A program made the position numbers and the translations under genes. A stretch of DNA of 64,000 bases. Source: an uncultured Clostridia bacterium (GTDB lineage: Bacteria; Bacillota; Clostridia; TANB77; CAG-508). The DNA lies in NCBI GenBank assembly GCA_944390405.1, contig CALXPS010000001.1, positions 18,300 through 82,299 of the forward strand, given 5' to 3'. Shown here in pieces: positions 33,767-49,722 of the stretch; within the stretch, counting starts at the first letter, position 1, and each line of letters begins with the position of its first letter. The notes under the pieces were generated by a model that saw only the letters and a list, made by a program, of their open reading frames with translations, searched no databases and had not been told where the DNA came from.

Positions 33767-36664
33767 GTGAGATTATTGGGAAATAAAACAAAAATTCATG
33801 AAATAGCAAAAAAAATAGGAGTATCAAGTAAAGAAGTTCTAGAAAGAGCACATTCTTTGGGTATAGAAGCATCATCACATTTAAGTGGAGTTGAAGATGA
33901 TGAAGCAAAAAAAATAGAAGAAAGTTTTGGAAAAGTAGATAATACAGATGTGAAAAAAACTGAGGAAAAGCCAAAAAAACAAAAAGAAGTAAAAGCAAAA
34001 AAAGAGCCAAAAGAACAACCTGTAATAATTAGAAGACAGGTAATCTTAGAAGATAGCGAAGAAAAAAATAAAAAAGCAAAAAAACAAGAAAGTGCTAGAA
34101 ATAGAGGTATTGGTGTTGTAGAGCGTGATAGAAACAAAGATTACAATATAGTATATAGAAACAAACAAACAAAACCTCTTACTGTGAGTGAACTTTTTGG
34201 CAAAAAAGAAGAATCAAAACAAGAAGAACCAAAAGAATCTGACAATATGAAACCAGTGGAAACAGAAGTGGTAGAAACAACCCAAGAAAAATCCAAACCA
34301 GAAGAAAAAAATTATAATAAAGAAAATCAGAATAAAAATTATAATAATAGAAATTATAATAATAATTATAACAATAATAATTACAACAATCAAAGAAGAC
34401 CATTTAATTATAATAATCAAGATAATAGAAACTACAATAACAGAAATAATAATGGCTTCCATCAAAATAATTTCAACAATAGAAATAATAATTTCAATAA
34501 AGATAGACAAGGCAATAACAATAGACCATTTAATAATAGAAACAATGGAAACTACAACAGACTAAACAGATCTCTTGATGAAAGGGGTATTGAAAAAAAT
34601 ATTAAAAATATAATGGCATCTGATGTTGTTGAAAAAGAAAGTGTAAGAGAATATTCAAACAGAGCAATAGACAAACAAAAAAATAATAGCAGATATGATG
34701 ACAACAGAATGACTAAAAAGAATAAAAACAGAAGAAACAATTACGATGAAATAAGTAGTCATAAACTTAAAGATTTAAAACAAGAAAAGGGACTTTCAAA
34801 TATGTTTACAGAAGGTTCAATGTTAGATTATTATGACCTAACTACTGCTAGAGGAAAAAAGAGCAAAAAGAAAAACAACAATCAAGAAGAAAGAAACAAA
34901 CAAAAAATATTCCAATTAACAGAAATAACAATACCAGAAACAATTACAGTAAAAGACTTAAGTACAGAATTAAAGAAAACAAGCAGTGAAATTATAAAAA
35001 AACTATTAGGTTATGGAATAATGGCAACAATTAATAATGAGGTTGATTTTGATACAGCTTTCTTAATAGCACAAGAATTTGGAATAACTGCACATAAAAA
35101 AGAAGTTGTAACAGATGAAGACATCCTATTTGATGATAGTGAGGATAATCCAGAGGATTTAAAACCAAGACCACCAGTAATAGTAGTTATGGGACACGTA
35201 GATCATGGTAAAACATCATTATTAGATGCTGTAAGATCAACAAACGTAATTGAAGGTGAAGCTGGAGGAATTACACAACATATAGGTGCATACAAAGTAA
35301 AAATAAATGATAGAGAAATAACATTCCTAGACACCCCAGGACATGAAGCATTTACATCAATGCGTGCTAGAGGTGCACAAATAACAGATATAGCAATACT
35401 AGTAGTTGCAGCTAATGATGGAGTAATGCCACAAACAATAGAAGCAATAAATCATGCCAAAGCAGCAGGAATACCAATTATAGTAGCAATTAATAAAATA
35501 GATGTTGACGGTGCAAATATTGATAGAGTAAAACAAGAATTGATGGAATATGAATTAGTACCAGAAGAATGGGGAGGAGACACAATATTTGTTCCAATTT
35601 CAGCAAAGAAAAAACAAAACATAGAAACATTATTAGAAATGGTATTATTAGTTGCAGACATGCAAGAATTAAAAGCAAATCCTAAAAAACAAGCAAAAGG
35701 TGTTGTAATAGAAGCAAAATTAGATAAAACAAAAGGAGCAGTTGCAACAATGCTTGTACAACGTGGAACATTAGATGTTGGAGATACAATCTTAGTTGGT
35801 TCTACAATTGGTAGAATAAGAACTATGACAGATGAAAAAGGTAAGAAATTAAAAAAAGCCGGACCATCTACACCAGTTGAAATAACAGGATTTACAGAAG
35901 TACCAGAAGCAGGTGAAACATTCTATGAAGTAAAAGATGAAAAAACAGCAAAACACTTAATGGAAAAAAGAAAACGTCAAGCAAGAGATAAAGCATTAAA
36001 TGCTACTAAGAGAGTAACATTAGATGATTTATTTAATCAGATAGAAAAAGGAAATCTAAAACAGTTAAACATAATTGTAAAAGCAGACGTGCAAGGTTCT
36101 GTAGAAGCTGTAAAACAATCATTAGAAAAATTATCTAATGATGAGGTAAAAGTAAAAGTAATACATGCAAATGTTGGTGCTGTTACAGAAACAGATGTTA
36201 CACTTGCAAAAGTTTCAAATGCTATAATAATTGCATTTAATGTAAGACCAGAACCATTGGCAAAAGATATGGCAGAAAAAGACCAAGTAGAAATAAAACT
36301 ATATTCTGTAATTTATAATGCAATAGAAGATGTTGAAGCAGCTATGAAAGGAATGTTAGACCCAGTATATAAAGAAGCGATAATAGGAAATGCAGAAGTA
36401 AGACAAACATTTAAAATATCAAATGTTGGAACAATTGCAGGATGTTATGTAACAAATGGTAAAGTAGCAAGAAATGCTGGAGTAAGAGTATTAAGAAATA
36501 ATGTCGTAATACATGAAGGTAAATTAATTTCATTAAAAAGAATGAAAGATGATGTAAAAGAAGTAGCAGCAGGATACGAATGTGGTGTGCAACTTGAAAA
36601 CTTTAATGATATACAAGAAGGAGATGTTATTGAGGCTTTTGTTATGGAACAGATTAATAAGTAA
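33767..36664 (+). CDS. infB: Translation initiation factor IF-2 with a ~100-aa Asn/Tyr-rich low-complexity insertion; likely start TTG 33776
   Basis: G domain [26 protein letters not shown]; AGGAGGTG RBS 6 nt before TTG 33776. Confidence 0.95.
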
Positions 36665-36686: not shown

Positions 36687-36734
36687 TTAATGAATAATGA
36701 ATAGTGAATAGTGAATAGTGAATAATTAATAATT
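36687..36734 (+). repeat. Stop-codon-dense AT repeat, copy A (TTAATGAATAATGAATAGTGAATAGTGAATAGTGAATAATTAATAATT)
   Basis: Heptamer TGAATAG periods give TAA/TGA/TAG in all three frames; immediately after the infB stop and hairpin. Confidence 0.8.
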
Positions 36735-41070: not shown

Positions 41071-41104
41071 TTAATGAATAGTGAATAATTAATAATTAAT
41101 AATT
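41071..41104 (+). repeat. Stop-codon-dense AT repeat, copy B
   Basis: TTAATGAATAGTGAATAATTAATAATTAATAATT directly after tRNA-Glu. Confidence 0.75.
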
Positions 41105-43621: not shown

Positions 43622-46225
43622 ATGGCAGAATTTTCACCTATGATGCAGCAATATTTAAGCATAAAAGAGCAATACAAGGATGCAATACTTTTCTTTAGAC
43701 TAGGTGATTTCTATGAAATGTTCTTTGAAGATGCAATACTGGCTTCAAGGGAATTAGAAATAACACTTACTGGTAAAGAATGTGGACAAGAAGAAAGAGC
43801 ACCAATGTGTGGTGTACCATTTCATGCGGTAGATAACTATGTTTCTAAATTAATTGAGAAAGGATATAAGGTAGCTATATGTGAACAGCTAGAGGACCCT
43901 AAAGTAACGAAGGGTATGGTAAAACGAGATGTTATAAGAATAGTAACACCAGGAACTGTAATTGAAAGTAATATGCTAGATGAAAAGAAAAATAATTACA
44001 TAATGTCTGTTTACAAGAAAGGAATTTATTTTGGAATAGCTATATGCGACGTATCTACTGGAGATTTCTACTCAACAAAAATAGTAGAAAATAATAATTT
44101 CGCAACACTATTAGACGAACTTGCAAAATTTGGCCCAGCAGAAATTGTTGTAAATAGCTTTTTATATAGCTCAACAGAAGAGATAAATGAAATAAAGAAA
44201 AGGTTTAATGTATATATAAATAATTTTGATGATGAAAATTTCAAAGATGATAAAGAAACATTGTTAAAAAATTATAACATTGAATATGAAAATAAAAAAA
44301 TAGAAAATCTAGATGATTATCAATTAGAAACTGTTGCTATAAATGGTTTGCTTGCATATTTAAGACAAACGCAAAAAATGAAACTAGAACATATAAACCA
44401 TATAAAGTTTTATAACCTACAAAAATATATGGCATTAGATATAACAGCAAGACGAAACCTAGAATTATTAGAAAGACAACATGATAAAGGCAAAAAAGGA
44501 ACTTTACTTTGGGTGTTAGACAAAACTTCAACATCTATGGGTGGAAGAATGCTTAGAAAATGGATAGGCGAGCCATTATTAGATGTTGGTGAAATAAATA
44601 GTAGGTTAGAAGCGGTAAAAGAATTAAAAGATAACAGTATTTTAAGAGGAGAATTACAACAAGTTTTAAAAAAAGTATATGATATAGAAAGATTAGTAGG
44701 TAAAATATCATATGGTAATAGTAATGCTAGAGAAATGAATGCATTAAAAAATTCATTAATGCAACTACCTTCAATAAAAGAATTACTAAAAGAAGCTAAT
44801 TCAGAATTACTTAAAAAATTAGAAATAAATTTAGATACATGTGAAGATTTGGCCAAACTAATAGATAGTGCAATTATAGATGATCCACCAATAACCATAA
44901 AAGAAGGTGGACTAATAAAAGAAGGTTATAATTCAGACGTAGACGAATACAAAAAAGCTTCAACAGAAGGTAAACAATGGCTTTTAGAATTGGAACAAAG
45001 GGAAAAAGAAACAACAGGAATAAAAAATCTAAAAATAGGATTTAACAAAGTATTTGGATATTTTATAGAAGTAACAAAATCAAATTTAAGTTTAGTACCA
45101 GATAGATATATAAGAAAGCAAACATTAACAAATGGAGAAAGATATATAACAGAAGAATTAAACGAGCTAGAAAGCAAAATTTTAGGAGCAGAAGAAAAAC
45201 TAATAAATTTAGAGTACAAGTTATTCATAGAATTGAGAAATATTTTAGCACAAAATATAATACGTTTGCAAAATACCGCAAATATAGTTGCTACATTAGA
45301 TGTACTTATATCTTTTAGTACTGTAGCAGAAGACATGAACTATACTTGTCCAATAGTAAATAATGACGGAGAAATTGATATAAAGAATGGTCGCCATCCT
45401 GTAATAGAAAAAATGATAGATTCTGGCTCATTTGTGGCAAATGATACATATTTAAATAAAGATACAGACCGCCTTTCTATAATTACAGGGCCAAATATGG
45501 CAGGAAAATCTACATATATGAGACAAGTTGCATTAATAACATTAATGGCACAAATAGGAAGTTTCGTACCTGCTTCATATGCAAAAATAGGTATAGTAGA
45601 TAAAATATTTACAAGAGTTGGTGCATCAGATGATTTAAGCATGGGGCAAAGTACATTCATGGTAGAAATGATGGAAGTTGCAACAATATTGAAAGAAGCA
45701 ACTGAAAATAGTTTAATAATACTAGACGAGATAGGCAGAGGAACATCAACATATGATGGATTATCAATAGCATGGGCAGTAGTAGAACACATAACAGACA
45801 AAACAAAATGTGGAGCAAAAACTTTATTTGCAACACATTATCATGAATTAACAGAACTAGAAAATAAATTAGAAGGCGTAAAAAATTACTCGATAGCTGT
45901 AAAAGAAAAAGGAGAAGATATAATTTTCTTAAGAAAAATAGTAAAAGGTGGAACAGATGAAAGCTACGGAATACATGTTGCAAAATTAGCAGGAGTGCCA
46001 AAAACAGTTGTAAAAAGATCAAACGAAATACTAAGAAGCCTAGAAAGAAAAAACATGCTAGGACAGAAAAAACAAGAAAACAAAAAACAACCAGAAGGAC
46101 AACTGGACTTTTATAATTATAAACTAGCTGAAATAGCTCATGAAATAGATAAAATAAATTTAAATGAATTAACACCGATAGACGCTCTTAATACGCTGAT
46201 GAAAATAAAAGAAAAGATGCAATAA
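43622..46225 (+). CDS. mutS: DNA mismatch repair protein MutS
   Basis: Mismatch-binding N-terminus; Walker A GPNMAGKST; STFMVEM; DEIGRGTSTYDG. Confidence 0.95.
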   Translation: MAEFSPMMQQYLSIKEQYKDAILFFRLGDFYEMFFEDAILASRELEITLTGKECGQEERAPMCGVPFHAVDNYVSKLIEKGYKVAICEQLEDPKVTKGMVKRDVIRIVTPGTVIESNMLDEKKNNYIMSVYKKGIYFGIAICDVSTGDFYSTKIVENNNFATLLDELAKFGPAEIVVNSFLYSSTEEINEIKKRFNVYINNFDDENFKDDKETLLKNYNIEYENKKIENLDDYQLETVAINGLLAYLRQTQKMKLEHINHIKFYNLQKYMALDITARRNLELLERQHDKGKKGTLLWVLDKTSTSMGGRMLRKWIGEPLLDVGEINSRLEAVKELKDNSILRGELQQVLKKVYDIERLVGKISYGNSNAREMNALKNSLMQLPSIKELLKEANSELLKKLEINLDTCEDLAKLIDSAIIDDPPITIKEGGLIKEGYNSDVDEYKKASTEGKQWLLELEQREKETTGIKNLKIGFNKVFGYFIEVTKSNLSLVPDRYIRKQTLTNGERYITEELNELESKILGAEEKLINLEYKLFIELRNILAQNIIRLQNTANIVATLDVLISFSTVAEDMNYTCPIVNNDGEIDIKNGRHPVIEKMIDSGSFVANDTYLNKDTDRLSIITGPNMAGKSTYMRQVALITLMAQIGSFVPASYAKIGIVDKIFTRVGASDDLSMGQSTFMVEMMEVATILKEATENSLIILDEIGRGTSTYDGLSIAWAVVEHITDKTKCGAKTLFATHYHELTELENKLEGVKNYSIAVKEKGEDIIFLRKIVKGGTDESYGIHVAKLAGVPKTVVKRSNEILRSLERKNMLGQKKQENKKQPEGQLDFYNYKLAEIAHEIDKINLNELTPIDALNTLMKIKEKMQ

Positions 46226-46245
46226 ATTGGCATCTTTTCTTTGTG
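46208..46245 (+). terminator. Rho-independent terminator overlapping the mutS stop
   Basis: GAAAAGATGC-aataaattg-GCATCTTTTC then TTTGTGTTTT. Confidence 0.75.
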
Positions 46246-46257
46246 TTTTCATCAGCG

Positions 46258-46298
46258 TTAATGAATAATGAATAGTGAATAGTGAATGATGAATAATT
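46258..46298 (+). repeat. Stop-codon-dense AT repeat, copy C (left inverted partner of D)
   Basis: TTAATGAATAATGAATAGTGAATAGTGAATGATGAATAAT. Confidence 0.8.
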
Positions 46299-46319
46299 TT
46301 TTTTACTTCTTTTACTTTT

Positions 46320-46712
46320 TTAATTTTTTGTTTTTTTGGATTTTATTGTGTTTAGTGTTGATATTAGCATTTTTTTTATGGATAGACATTTATTGATTAA
46401 ATTGTTGTATAGATTTAAGGAAATATAATTGGATTTTAATAATAATTTTATCCAATATTCTGTTTCTGCACATTCTTTTAATGCGATGTGCATTTTAGAA
46501 ATAAAATCAGAAGAACTAATAGCATAATTAGCTTCATTAATATTAGCACCTATACTAGTTGCACTACGAATAATCTGTTTAGAAATAATAAACTCTTTTT
46601 TATTTTTAACTAAAAAAATCTGCAATCTAATAACATCAGCTGCAAACTCTAAAGACTGCTCCAACAACGGATTCTCCCTCACAACACCCCCCCTTCCTTC
46701 GAAGAAGCCCAC
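46320..46712 (-). CDS. Four-helix-bundle protein of the 23S-rRNA-IVS / DGR Avd family; true start probably GTG ~46682 after GAAGGGGGGG
   Basis: LLEQSLEFAADVIRL...RSATSIGANINEA core typical of TIGR02436 / PF05635. Confidence 0.65.
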   Translation of the reverse strand: MGFFEGRGGVVRENPLLEQSLEFAADVIRLQIFLVKNKKEFIISKQIIRSATSIGANINEANYAISSSDFISKMHIALKECAETEYWIKLLLKSNYISLNLYNNLINKCLSIKKMLISTLNTIKSKKTKN

Positions 46713-46720
46713 CCAAAAAA

Positions 46721-46760
46721 ATTATTCACCATTCATTATTCACTATTCATTATTAATTAG
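46721..46760 (-). repeat. Stop-codon-dense AT repeat, copy D (inverted orientation)
   Basis: Reverse complement CTAATTAATAATGAATAGTGAATAATGAATGGTGAATAAT matches copies A-C. Confidence 0.8.
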
Positions 46761-46787
46761 AAAAAACGCCTGTTAAGGCGTTTTTTC
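46761..46787. terminator. Bidirectional terminator hairpin (AAAAAACGCC-TGTTA-AGGCGTTTTTTC) ending the minus-strand tRNA operon
   Basis: Perfect stem with A-run on one side and T-run on the other. Confidence 0.7.
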
Positions 46788-46788
46788 T

Positions 46789-46864
46789 TGGCTGGGGTGG
46801 GAGGACTCGAACCGCCGAAATGCCAGAGTCAAAGTCTGGTGCCTTACCACTTGGCTACACCCCA
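46789..46864 (-). tRNA. tRNA-Gln (anticodon TTG)
   Basis: Reverse complement TGGGGTGTAGCCAAGTGG... cloverleaf; anticodon loop CTTTGAC; CCA encoded. Confidence 0.8.
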
Positions 46865-46891
46865 ATATATAAATATTTAATTTGTAACTCG

Positions 46892-46969
46892 TGGGGTGGA
46901 AGATGGGACTCGAACCCACGGCCTCTGGTGCCACAAACCAGCGCTCTAACCAACTGAGCTACATCCACC
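46892..46969 (-). tRNA. tRNA-His (anticodon GTG) with extra 5' G(-1)
   Basis: Reverse complement GGTGGATGTAGCTCAGTTGG...; anticodon loop TTGTGGC; discriminator C; CCA encoded. Confidence 0.8.
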
Positions 46970-47131
46970 AGAAATTTCATGCTATTAATATAAGCACATG
47001 TACTATTTTAAATAATTTTTTCGAGTTTGTCAACACTTTTTAGAAAAAAAGTAAAAATAGTTGACTTTTTTTCTTTGTAATGATATGATTTTATCAAATG
47101 ATACATAAAACAAAGGAGGACATATCGAAAA

Positions 47132-48695
47132 ATGAGAAAAAATAGTGGAATAACTTTAATAATGTTAATAATATATATAATTTTAACTTTATTAGTTCTA
47201 GGTATGCTAAGTGTATTAGGAATGAATTTTAGAAAAAATTTAAATAGTACAAATGAGCAAACCATTCGTGATATTGAATTTGATAAATTAAATTTACAAT
47301 TATTAAAAGAAACAAAAACAGAAGGAAATGTAATAAATGAAAGTGAATCAAATTCAACTAAAATAGTTTTTTCTAACGGAAATGTATATACTTATAATGA
47401 AGCGGAACAAACAGTTTATTTAAATGAAAATATAAAAATAGCAGAACATATTGAAGCTTGTACATTTAAAATAAAGTCAGTAGAAACAGATGCTTTTAAT
47501 GAAACTAGAAACTATACAGATAAAAACGGAGATGTAGCTGTAATTCCAGCAGGATTTATGGTTTCTGGATTAGAAGATGAACAAACAATAGATACAGGGT
47601 TAGTAATATATGAAGCTGTGCCAACAAAAAAACAAAGATTAAATGTAATAGTTAAAGTAAACGACATGCAAAGGGTAACAGAATATGTTTTAATAAGTGA
47701 AGCTAGTGCTATAAACTGGAATGATGGAGCAGAAGTAGCAACAGCACAAACAACATATGACCAATTTGTATGGATACCAATATCACATGAACAAATAAAT
47801 AATATGTATATTTGCCAAGCAAAAACAGGTTCAAATGGAAATTGTAACATAACAGTAGAAAACGGACAAGCAAAATGCACAACCCACAATTCAAACCTAA
47901 TGGCAGGAAGACTATATGCTACATCTACTGGAGAAAAATTTGAACAAGGCTATACCGAAGTTTATGACACAACAGGAGAAGGACTAAGAGAGCCAGATGT
48001 AGTATCAATTTATGACAACGATAGCACGTATTTAAGCCAACTATCAAGTATACTAGGCTCAGGATACGATACAATGGAAAACTTCAAACAAAGTCTACAA
48101 CAAGAATATAACGAAGTAGTAAAAAGCGTATATGAAAACCAAGGATTTTATATAGGTAGATATGAAACAAGTGGAATGGTAAATAGTAACACAAATGCAA
48201 CAGTAAAATCAGTAGCAGGAACAAACATAGGAATAGGCAGTGTAACATGGTATAGAAGGTATGCCCAACAAAAGAAATATGCAGAAAACAACCAATTAAC
48301 TAGTGTAAAAAGTACAATGATACAAGGGGCGGCATACGACCAAGTAATGAAATTTGTAGAAAATGGAGAAAGACCAGATGGACAACCTTACAATATAACA
48401 ACAGCAGGAAATGTAGGACATGGTTCAAGTCAAGGTATAACAGGAACATATCAAACAGGAGGATTGAATTATCCAAGTTCAGCAACAGTACCATACAATG
48501 ACAAAGTAAAAAACATATACGACCTAGAAGGAAACGTATTTACGTGGACTACAGAGGCCCACTCTAGCAACTACAGGGTTGTCAGAGGTCGGTGGTTACG
48601 TCGGCAGCAATTCAGCTAGTTGTCGCAGCTACTGCAATCCGATCGGCAGCGACACCATTTACGGTTCTAGCCTCCAGCTTTACGTAGTTCTGTAA
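47132..48695 (+). CDS. Pilin-like protein with C-terminal FGE-sulfatase / C-type-lectin-fold domain, a DGR-target-like variable-region (VR) protein. It is frameshifted near 48590: the annotated frame stops at 48619 and the domain continues in the +1 frame to 48695
   Basis: N-terminus KNSGITLIMLIIY prepilin-like; EGNVFTWT...YRVVRGRW matches the GNVWEW...RVLRGGSW family motif; +1 frame 48582-48695 reads GGYVGSNSASCRSYCNPIGSDTIYGSSLQLYVVL with 16 of 36 NNC codons. Confidence 0.55.
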
Positions 48696-48827
48696 GCTAA
48701 TAGCGATACACCAATTACTGCCACGGACTAGTGGCATGGTAAAAAGTTTGAGTTCAAATGAAAAAAATAAAAAAATACCTCTTGCATATATTACAAATTT
48801 GTGGTAATATTAAGAGGTATTTGAAAT

Positions 48828-48902
48828 AGGGGTATAGTGTTAATGGTAGCACATCGGTCTCCAAAACCGCTTGTGAGGGTTCGAATCCTTCTACCCCTGC
48901 CA
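48828..48902 (+). tRNA. tRNA-Trp (anticodon CCA)
   Basis: AGGGGTATAGTGTTAATGG... cloverleaf; anticodon loop CTCCAAA; CCA encoded; TTGCAT-17-TAATAT promoter upstream. Confidence 0.85.
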
Positions 48903-48906
48903 GAGG

Positions 48907-48929
48907 AAAAACGCCGTGGGCGTTTTTTT
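48907..48929 (+). terminator. Rho-independent terminator after tRNA-Trp
   Basis: AAAAACGCC-gtg-GGCGTTTTTTT. Confidence 0.85.
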
Positions 48930-49040
48930 ATTGTATAGGAAAAATCGAAGATTTTTCCTATACAACAAGGTTAAGCTTCCTTGGTCTGTGCATATTTGCG
49001 AAGCAAAATACACATATGGCGAAGCCACTTTTCTTATGAA
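48923..49040. repeat. 118-bp conserved noncoding block copy 2 (perfect palindrome GTATAGGAAAAATC-GAA-GATTTTTCCTATAC)
   Basis: About 90% identity with 4162-4280; the ORF-track ORF 48916-49107 over it is not conserved in copy 1 (stop in frame), so it is noncoding. Confidence 0.7.
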
Positions 49041-49165
49041 TAGTGAAATAATGTTTTGGAAATTTTTTAGAATATATTTACAATTTGGGCTTGTTATGAT
49101 ATATTAGTTTTACAAATAGACTTTTAATAAATTACTAAATATGGTATAATAGAAAAGAGGAAAAC

Positions 49166-49489
49166 ATGGAAGAATTGAATATAAATAATATTAGAAGATT
49201 AGTTAAAGAAAACAAATTACGATGGACTAGACATGTAATTGTAAGATTATTACAAAGAGATATATCTCAATCAGACATAAAAGAATGCTTACAAAAAGGA
49301 GAGATAATAGAAATGTATGAGAAAAGCTATCCATATCCAAGTTGTTTAGTATATGGTATAGTAAAAGGAGATAAAATATTGCATACAGTTGTAGGATATG
49401 ATGGAGATAATCTATGGATAATAACAGCATATTACCCAAATAATATGGAGTGGGAAAATAATTTTAAGAAAAGAAGGGAGATTAAATAA
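49166..49489 (+). CDS. DUF4258 domain protein (toxin-like)
   Basis: LRWTRHVIVRLLQRDISQSDIKE...PSCLVYG...ILHTVVG...WIITAYYPN matches the DUF4258 core. Confidence 0.7.
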   Translation: MEELNINNIRRLVKENKLRWTRHVIVRLLQRDISQSDIKECLQKGEIIEMYEKSYPYPSCLVYGIVKGDKILHTVVGYDGDNLWIITAYYPNNMEWENNFKKRREIK

Positions 49490-49722
49490 TGGAAAATTGT
49501 TTTATGTGTAAAGGCACAATGGAAAAGAAAAATACTACATTTATGGTAGAATTAAATAATACGATTATAATTATAAAAAATGTTCCTTCACTTGTATGCA
49601 AACAATGTGGTGAAGTAGCATATGAAGATAAAATTGCTAGTCATTTAGAAAAACTAGTAAATACAGTAAAAAATGCAATTACAGAAATTACTGTAATTAA
49701 TTATACTGAAAAAGTTGCATAA
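49489..49722 (+). CDS. YgiT-type zinc-finger protein (MqsA-like antitoxin N-domain), partner of DUF4258
   Basis: CFMCKG...CKQCGE zinc ribbon; 1-nt overlap TAATG with the upstream gene. Confidence 0.6.

Follow-up and report, generated by a model that had tools for sequence, protein, structure and literature searches.

A diversity-generating retroelement target of an uncultured Clostridia bacterium and the conserved +1 frame break in related templates

The target gene and its broken reading frame

We analysed a 64,000-nt stretch of DNA from an uncultured Clostridia bacterium (assembly GCA_944390405.1, contig CALXPS010000001.1, positions 18,300 to 82,299), hereafter called the window. The gene of interest is a target of a diversity-generating retroelement (DGR), an open reading frame (ORF) of 495 aa at 47132-48619 on the forward strand with a strong ribosome-binding site (AAGGAGG, 47113-47119). 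Its frame-0 part (486 codons, 47132-48589, forward strand) runs up to ...RVVRG; a hydrophobic pilin-like segment at the N-terminus is followed by a beta domain and by a C-terminal domain that resembles the FGE/C-type lectin (CLec) fold. The tail RWLRRQQFS and its stop codon (48590-48619, forward strand) follow, and the annotated protein ends in ...YRVVRGRWLRRQQFS*. The tRNA-Gln and tRNA-His genes separate the target from a four-helix-bundle gene, and a tRNA-Trp gene lies 3' of it. The Rfam search over 46000-49200 returned these three tRNA genes only; the GC-rich patch at the end of the target matched no known RNA.

The reading frame breaks at C48590. Positions 48591-48692 in the +1 frame encode GGYVGSNSASCRSYCNPIGSDTIYGSSLQLYVVL, which comprises 34 codons and is followed by a TAA stop at 48693-48695, and this continuation (48591-48695, forward strand) matches the homologues that are in frame. 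Leaving out C48590 joins RVVRG to GGYVG and yields a protein of 520 aa. The junction GGT C GGT GGT (48587-48596, forward strand), with C48590 as the extra base, is a candidate recoding site. The frame-0 codon at 48590-48592 is CGG, the rarest Arg codon, found only three times in about 16,360 window codons outside the target gene (~0.2 per 1000), and the +1 codon GGT at 48591-48593 restores an RGG motif. An earlier note on this DNA, made from the letters alone, had described an annotated frame ending at 48619, a +1 frameshift near 48590, and a GC-balanced patch from ~48560, all of which we recovered (GC content 0.55 at 48550-48649 vs. 0.28 for the window). The tail is also rich in NNC codons as that note had stated, but the count is 17 of 35 rather than 16 of 36: the third codon positions of the tail are C17 T12 A3 G3, whereas 56% of those in the gene body are A. 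The best reading is that the real C-terminus would be carried by the +1 frame (48591-48692) and that RWLRRQQFS, an out-of-frame reading of the variable region (VR), is probably not the functional C-terminus. A separate start of the +1 ORF at TTG 48579 was considered and dropped, since the TTG is not kept (the metagenome locus L002 has GTC TAC; L numbers denote metagenome contigs or loci, and P numbers the representatives of homologue clusters).

A hairpin, TGCCAC-GGACTA-GTGGCA, is located at 48719-48736 (forward strand), 24 nt after the +1 stop codon and ~8 nt to the left of the position first reported for it (~48727-48744). It occurs at an equal distance in all loci, and its sequence differs in type-B targets. 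We regard it as a candidate DGR target-recognition hairpin, a role that we presume by analogy with the DGR of Bordetella phage BPP-1.

The target has more than 4000 homologues, none of which has a Pfam domain, and its family comprises more than 2000 clusters of proteins from gut bacteria. The C-termini of the homologues are constant except at fixed positions (EGNV-xx-WTTEA-xxxxx-RV-x-RG...), a DGR-like pattern. Pfam returned no domain for the full-length target, FGE-sulfatase included, with or without correction of the frame. The isolated corrected tail of the window gene matched PF03781 weakly (E 0.075, 13.1 bits vs. a threshold of 23.3), and the frame-0 tail gave no match. For the sister target L150, the corrected tail reached 25.0 bits against the threshold of 23.3 in a match that spans the junction, and the frame-0 tail scored 16.9. 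A profile of corrected and in-frame domains retrieved FGE-fold chains only from PDB, the best being SUMF2 (E 0.0015); the other chains (PorK/GldK, TvpA, and FGE) all had E above 0.05, with the DGR target TvpA non-significant at E 1. The FGE/CLec assignment proposed earlier is thus borne by the corrected tail, L150, and the PDB profile, but not by the full-length target, for which Pfam is silent. Of two AlphaFold2 models, that of the corrected full protein had a predicted local distance difference test (pLDDT) score of 49 and that of the C-terminal domain a score of 36, both too poor for this domain, and Foldseek was uninformative; only a helix at residues 9-38 and the beta domain at about residues 60-120 were confident.

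The type IV prepilin motif consists of G at -1, E at +5, and a hydrophobic helix. The N-terminus of the target (KNSG/ITLIM) has G at -1, but M instead of E at +5. The prepilin motif PF07963 did not match the window protein at E<=1, and relatives scored 16-18 bits against a cut-off of 21.2. Of the prepilin-like N-terminus described earlier, the hydrophobic helix after KNSG/ITLI stands, but the Pfam match and the E at +5 are lacking. Paralogues are clustered with other pilin-like genes in one relative. We treat pilin membership as a resemblance only. The overall layout suggests that the target may be a surface or pilus-associated adhesin of lectin type with a diversified binding site.

Variable region and related retroelement cassettes

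The template repeat (TR) used for comparison is that of L138, a related gut-metagenome contig, and not one of the window's own genome. The TR expected in the window's own genome would read GGCCAACTCTAGCAACAACAGGGTTAACAGAGGTCGGTAATTACAACAACAGCAATTCAGCTAGTTATCGCAACAACAACAATCCGAACAACAGCAACACCAATAACGGTTCTAGCCTCCAGCTC. The L138 TR aligned without gaps to 48551-48681, and the VR homologous to it (48556-48681, forward strand) is likewise gap-free and ends its homology in the GC-rich GGTTCTAGCCTCCAGCT. Within the core (48556-48679), 21 of the 47 TR adenines differ, compared with 0 of the 77 other bases (Fisher p = 4e-11). In a blastn search of the TR region against the window, the VR was the only match (82.8% over 128 nt). 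No RT (reverse transcriptase), TR, bAvd, or second target copy was found in the 64-kb window. As judged by these alignments, the target (47132-48695) is a genuine VR-bearing DGR target, as the earlier note had proposed. Since the window holds neither RT nor TR, the target is predicted to be served in trans by an RT and a TR elsewhere in the genome, which was one of the options first considered; RT and TR were found in related cassettes.

The variability among strains that had been named as a check was also seen. Orthologues that are 92-100% identical over 485 aa carry five tails (RGRWLRRQQFS, RGRLLRLQQFS, RGRHLRQQLFS, RGRFLRRQLFS, and RGR*), indicating that the locus is diversified in nature. 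The DNA of three target copies aligned without gaps, and the differences were confined to four-fold sites and to the first two positions of NNC/NNT codons. In the homologue alignment, the frame-0 columns derived from AAY codons hold nearly only the residues permitted by a fixed C/T followed by NN. Two loci of one sample (L002 and L003, ERZ15235275) have identical bodies over 262 codons (dS 0.006) and different N-termini, and their VRs are templated by two TR types, GGC-C-GGC and GGT-C-GGT. This pattern implies gene conversion between paralogues together with two cassettes or strains. Housekeeping genes surround all the targets, and no RT was seen within 10 kb of them. In the window, mutS precedes the target, and two paralogues of one sample lie by fatty-acid-synthesis/rplU genes and by an ABC ATPase and a YebC-family gene, respectively.

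Outside the VR, the two codons after EGNV (48538-48543 in the window; about 4766-4768 in L139-L144) are hypervariable between paralogues. Located 12-18 nt ahead of the point where TR/VR homology begins, they differ even in near-identical strains (GGG/TTG/TGG). The variants all fit an AAA-like template, and no TR segment covers 48538-48543.

Scanning metagenomes with the inferred TR core led to genuine DGR TRs, among them those of low-GC relatives. L126 is a complete cassette with a target that has a pilin-like N-terminus, a bAvd (PF22296), an RT (RVT_1, with IGNYTSQ...YMDD), and a TR; its TR/VR mismatches fall at adenines. Further cassettes were retrieved with the L126 RT as the query. The order in the cassettes is target, MutS-like ORF in some cases, bAvd, RT, and TR. 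The RTs of L126, L138, L145, and L150 matched RVT_1 with E values of 1e-19 to 1e-20 and contain IGNYTSQ and YMDD. A DGR-clade RT beside a TR was therefore found in the related cassettes only, the window being without RT. The SQ motif is the signature of DGR RTs, and QGxxxSP is the non-DGR form (PMC3521204); the QGxxxSP motif named as DGR-type in the earlier note is hence not the one to look for. The small ORF with MutS domain I, an accessory of the MutS-like (MSL) type, is at 9249-9668 in L138 and 2640-3059 in L145, and in L133 the RT bears this domain as an N-terminal fusion (PF01624, E 5e-6). MSL and bAvd accessories of DGRs have already been described (PMC5758913). The name of the L150 record gives human gut metagenome as its source, so at least some of the related contigs are from human gut.

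About 150 nt downstream of each TR there is a conserved ORF of 81 aa (L138 11332-11577; L139 7320-7565; L145 4714-4959; L150 5326-5571). It has faint similarity to OB-fold/SSB proteins and is preceded by a conserved non-coding element (…CTCTAATACAAATTTGAGATTATGTATTTTAAGGAATGCATACAGTAAAAGTATTAGTA…). The ORF may be a further accessory gene, and the non-coding element may be an RNA needed for priming.

We also looked for the element in viruses. Scans of viral_contigs with the inferred TR, the constant part of the VR, the sequence element 3' of the TR, and both types of TR core (+C and in frame) gave 0 matches. Neither IMG/VR nor INPHARED matched the element, and blastn against phage records gave 0 matches. 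Given these results, the element looks chromosomal/cellular.

Distribution of the extra C and the frame read past it

The extra C is present in every VR of this type, in those of the window, L002, L003, L126, L138, L145, L146, and L150/151. It is also present in the TRs of L126, L138, L145-149, and L150-152, which represent at least four diverged TR lineages. These templates read AGA GGT C GGT AAT TAC (L138), AGA GGC C GGC AAT TAC (L145-149), AGG GGC C GGC AAT TAC (L126), and AGG GGT C GGC AAT TAC (L150-152). Other templates are in frame and read CGT GGT GGC AAT (L128, L133), AGG GGC GGT AAT (L139-144), or AGG GGT GGC AAT (L153-162). The TR/VR pairs of L126, L138, L145/146, and L150/151 differ by adenine-only mismatches, indicating that these are active elements. 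The +C contigs come from independent assemblies of many samples, with names in SPAdes NODE_, k141_/k87_, and scaffold style. Because the identical C recurs in independent assemblies and in the non-variable TR itself, a sequencing error, an option first entertained, is excluded. Decay of an orphan target without TR and RT fares little better: apart from the frame break itself, which is all that speaks for error or decay, the VR has a cognate-type TR with no mismatch among its 77 non-adenine bases, the VRs of near-identical orthologues differ, and the gene body is under purifying selection. We consider an assembly error or a decayed target extremely improbable.

Among the closest homologue clusters, 113 of 120 are shifted (R..RGR followed by an out-of-frame tail) and six are in frame. 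When diverse 50%-identity representatives with a C-terminal anchor were counted (n=105), about 29 were shifted (~28%) and about 70 ended in frame with ...GSR.TLYIK. The RTs of the +C cassettes split into two subclades with 80-83% identity between them; the outgroups are in frame. The RT relationships fit one gain and one loss of the C, or several gains. Some representatives (P0280, P0302, P0306, P0311, P0381, and others) end in R..RRR and a short tail, not in RGR, which suggests an insertion one codon earlier, possibly making a tandem CGG. The syntenic orthologue in L163 (P0090, 1630-1975; 53% identity, likewise with tRNA-Trp downstream) reads AGA GGA C GGA, and no single frame takes its tail to the canonical end; the copy may be decaying, or the assembly may be of low coverage.

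Next, we compared the two frames past the C. The TR adenines at codon positions 1/2/3 number 18/16/1 in the +1 frame vs. 1/18/16 in frame 0, so the AAY design of DGRs continues in the +1 frame. In seven distinct +C VRs with names of short-read style (NODE_/k141_/k87_), no stop interrupts the +1 frame over 34-37 codons, up to a conserved terminus (GSSLQLYV[DV]L* or IGFRPALYVKL*), and frame 0 ends after 8-26 arbitrary codons. The frame-0 tails in the 113 homologues stop at random, from 0 to about 60 codons on. Many end at once in RGR*, since an unmutated GGY AAT is read as CGG TAA. The great diversity of these tails would be expected if the truncated frame-0 product were functional and the frameshift added a C-terminal tail of random length and sequence as a source of diversity. 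We find this improbable, because an unmutated AAT leads to the immediate stop in many homologues, the product would lose the ~35 C-terminal residues of the FGE/CLec fold that every in-frame relative conserves, and the frame-0 adenine phase is opposite to the DGR design and generates stops.

The scaffold codons of the +C TRs (those other than AAY) differ only by third-position changes that are synonymous in the +1 frame. They are GGT/GGC, AGC/AGT (twice), TCA/TCT, GCT/GCA, and ACC/ACA, which are non-synonymous in frame 0. The gene bodies of the +C lineages had a ratio of nonsynonymous to synonymous substitution rates (dN/dS) of 0.22-0.29 at dS 0.25-0.40, and comparisons with the in-frame relative gave 0.26-0.33, so the +C bodies are no more relaxed. 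The bodies of the target genes are thus under purifying selection, with dN/dS of about 0.25. The frameshift site is conserved among homologues, and the frame downstream of it is under coding constraint. The low mutation of scaffold adenines was also considered as a sign of +1 selection and was dropped, as the A of TCA, silent in the +1 frame, hardly ever mutates either.

These data bear on a template-borne loss of function, in which a 1-nt insertion in the TR was copied to all targets and left truncated, useless proteins, with an RT that still works and a +1 signature that only preserves the former frame as a fossil. Recently inactivated DGRs with A-only VR/TR mutations have been reported (PMC3521204), all shifted homologues reach a frame-0 stop within 0-60 codons, and extra indels are found in L126, L138, and 4 of 113 homologues. 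However, the C persists across RT lineages that are only 80% identical and in ~28% of the diverse representatives, dN/dS of the bodies stays at about 0.25 for dS values reaching 0.4-0.8, more than 100 ORFs of 430-545 aa are intact, and every scaffold change in the +C TRs is +1-synonymous. We therefore hold a loss of function to be unlikely, although it is, with phase variation, a main rival of recoding.

We lean, with limited confidence, towards a DGR target whose TR-encoded +1 break is read through by recoding at GGY-CGG. Whether the template of a retroelement encodes and re-installs a programmed +1 recoding site in all its targets we would put at even chances. In the proposed sequence of events, the RT would copy the TR with errors at adenines, and the cDNA would overwrite 48556-48681. 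This would diversify the ligand-binding face of the FGE/C-type-lectin-like domain on a pilin-like, probably surface-exposed protein. The extra C of the TR sits between the two Gly codons of the R-G-G motif (AGR GGY C GGY AAT TAC), so that each homing event would install the +1 frame break in the VR, and since neither the C nor the surrounding bases include adenine, mutagenesis would never destroy the site. The ribosome would stall with tRNA-Gly occupying the P site at GGY and the very rare CGG in the A site. Reading could resume on the overlapping +1 GGY by a Ty3-like acceptance of Gly-tRNA. Alternatively, the peptidyl-tRNA could re-pair on the next GGY in a 4-nt GGY-to-GGY hop. Either route would give ...RVVRG(G)GYVG... 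and a full protein of 520 aa ending in GSSLQLYVVL, with a +1 junction peptide such as ...VVR/GGGYVGSNSASCR; the product of a hop would be distinguishable by one Gly fewer (GGYVGSN...). The covariation of the Gly codons (GGT-C-GGT, GGC-C-GGC, GGA-C-GGA) was considered as evidence for hopping and dropped, because any one transition in GGT-C-GGC, the form that L150 has, makes the two codons identical.

Several points weigh against recoding. First, we infer the ribosomal decoding at GGY-CGG purely from the sequence, and the TR and RT evidence comes from related contigs, not from the genome of the window. Second, the site lacks the usual stimulators. Re-pairing of GGY-C in the P site would be on GYC, with a middle-base mismatch; the Shine-Dalgarno (SD)-like AGAGG/AGGGG overlaps the P-site codon and is not 3 nt upstream of it as in prfB; and a conserved downstream structure is impossible inside a hypervariable region. 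A Ty3-like shift or a GGY-to-GGY hop would need neither re-pairing nor an SD-like stimulator. Third, the in-frame L139 is nested among the +C RTs (its RT is 90% identical to that of L126), and without a clean single origin of the C the silent TR substitutions could predate it. Per-site mutation is uneven as well, so site-wise conservation is no proof of +1 selection. Finally, the L126 lineage carries one more extra base (AAA C GGT) in its TR as well as its VR (L126 3700-3712 and 1447-1459), which again puts CGG in the incoming frame, two codons before a stop, the VR of L138 itself has an extra T, and 4 of 113 homologues have a further indel. Broken frames are thus tolerated by the system.

The same indels could belong to a DGR-coupled phase variation, in which the shifted consensus is OFF and rare RT slippage, a -1 or +2 indel in the downstream AAC repeats during retrohoming, gives ON, so that expression and specificity are switched together. 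About 7% of DGRs are known to have TR/VR indels by AAC repeats (PMC5758913), the VR of L126 has a 3-nt insertion and that of L138 a 1-nt insertion, and 4 of 113 homologues end in the third frame (...SVLASSFT*). Yet a compensating indel that restores the canonical C-terminus was found in 0 of 113 shifted homologues (assemblies represent the majority allele), and the six close homologues in frame have different constant residues and so come from other, in-frame TRs. Phase variation appears to be a doubtful explanation, and we retain recoding as the preferred one.

Related systems and neighbouring genes

The element was compared with known DGRs. It shares with cellular DGRs (Legionella pneumophila; Treponema denticola TvpA; Wu et al. 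2018, PMC5758913) the SQ-motif RT, the bAvd, the MutS-like ORF, the AAC/AAT-rich TR, the adenine-only mismatches, a 3' VR in a C-type-lectin/FGE fold, and several targets per genome. It differs from them in the order target-MSL-bAvd-RT-TR, with the TR downstream of the RT, in targets scattered singly among housekeeping genes, in the pilin-like N-terminus, and in the TR-encoded frame break. The indels of Wu et al. 2018 are between TR and VR, whereas here TR and VR agree and the C is conserved. Mutagenic retrohoming, AAY codons, the GC-rich end of homology, and the downstream hairpin are common to the BPP-1 DGR (Mtd/Avd/TR/Brt), but the element here looks chromosomal, the target is in trans, and the VR would be read in two frames. 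The DGRs of Bacteroides type V pilus tip adhesins (bioRxiv 10.1101/2024.11.15.621889), as far as their abstract describes them, have in common the gut hosts and a hypermutated, pilus-associated adhesive domain; unlike them, the target here has a type IV-pilin-like N-terminus with a weak signature, which is another pilus class, and comes from a different phylum, to judge by its low-GC, Firmicutes-like genome. That abstract mentions no frameshift. In the literature searched, we found no report of a TR-encoded frame break conserved across lineages, and none linking DGR VRs with ribosomal frameshifting or prepilin-type targets.

Known +1 frameshifts and hops include prfB (CUU-UGA-C), yeast Ty3 (GCG-AGU-U), hungry-codon sliding, and the GGA-to-GGA bypass of T4 gene 60. 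Like programmed +1 sites, the candidate site described here is conserved and has a slow 0-frame codon (CGG) after Gly and an abundant Gly codon in the +1 frame. Like those of T4 gene 60, its take-off and landing codons are both Gly. Unlike programmed +1 sites, it lacks a slippery P-site codon, a correctly spaced SD-like stimulator, and any possible conserved downstream structure, and it is kept by the template of a retroelement and not by the gene itself.

To our knowledge, prokaryotes have no natural system of targeted protein hypermutation other than DGRs, which are now being re-engineered as tools for directed evolution. If the recoding reading is true, a frame break conserved in the template would be a new layer of control in which recoding is coupled to hypermutation, and the output of a hypermutated surface lectin would depend on ribosomal frameshifting. 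Adhesin output could then follow translation or tRNA-Arg status, or most copies could stay silent. The site would also extend the natural +1 sites by an unusual one, in which a hungry CGG acts without a slippery codon. In addition, automatic annotation would truncate a large family of surface proteins of gut bacteria, with the feature in about a quarter of its more than 2000 clusters, and DGR catalogues would place the VRs 'outside' the ORFs.

The four-helix-bundle gene encodes a 130-aa protein of the 23S-rRNA-IVP family (46320-46712, reverse strand; PF05635 E 2e-26, TIGR02436 E 1.6e-28). It had been taken for an Avd-family gene 400 bp from the target. The gene is there, but tRNA-Gln and tRNA-His intervene, and the protein did not match bAvd (PF22296) or NF033474 and showed no similarity to the bAvd of the cassettes by BLASTP (E 0.45). 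It is absent beside the paralogous targets and beside the syntenic gene of a relative, and the cassettes carry their own bAvd. Thus, it is TIGR02436/PF05635 and not a DGR Avd, and is probably unrelated to the DGR.

A 45-nt inverted repeat of GAATAGT heptamers (46259-46303 and 46715-46759; 93% complementary; no strand assigned) brackets the four-helix-bundle gene and is reminiscent of an rRNA intervening-sequence stem or of a small mobile cassette. Further GAATAGT arrays lie at 36699-36732 and 41076-41095, after infB and tRNA-Glu (8 matches vs. 0.09 expected). Just downstream of tRNA-Trp, 49166-49722 encodes a DUF4258 protein (107 aa) and a YokU-like zinc-ribbon protein (77 aa) with a 1-nt overlap, a pair that looks like a toxin-antitoxin module. 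Finally, the infB (IF-2) ORF at 33767-36664 has a long Asn/Tyr-rich low-complexity insert in its N-terminal region.

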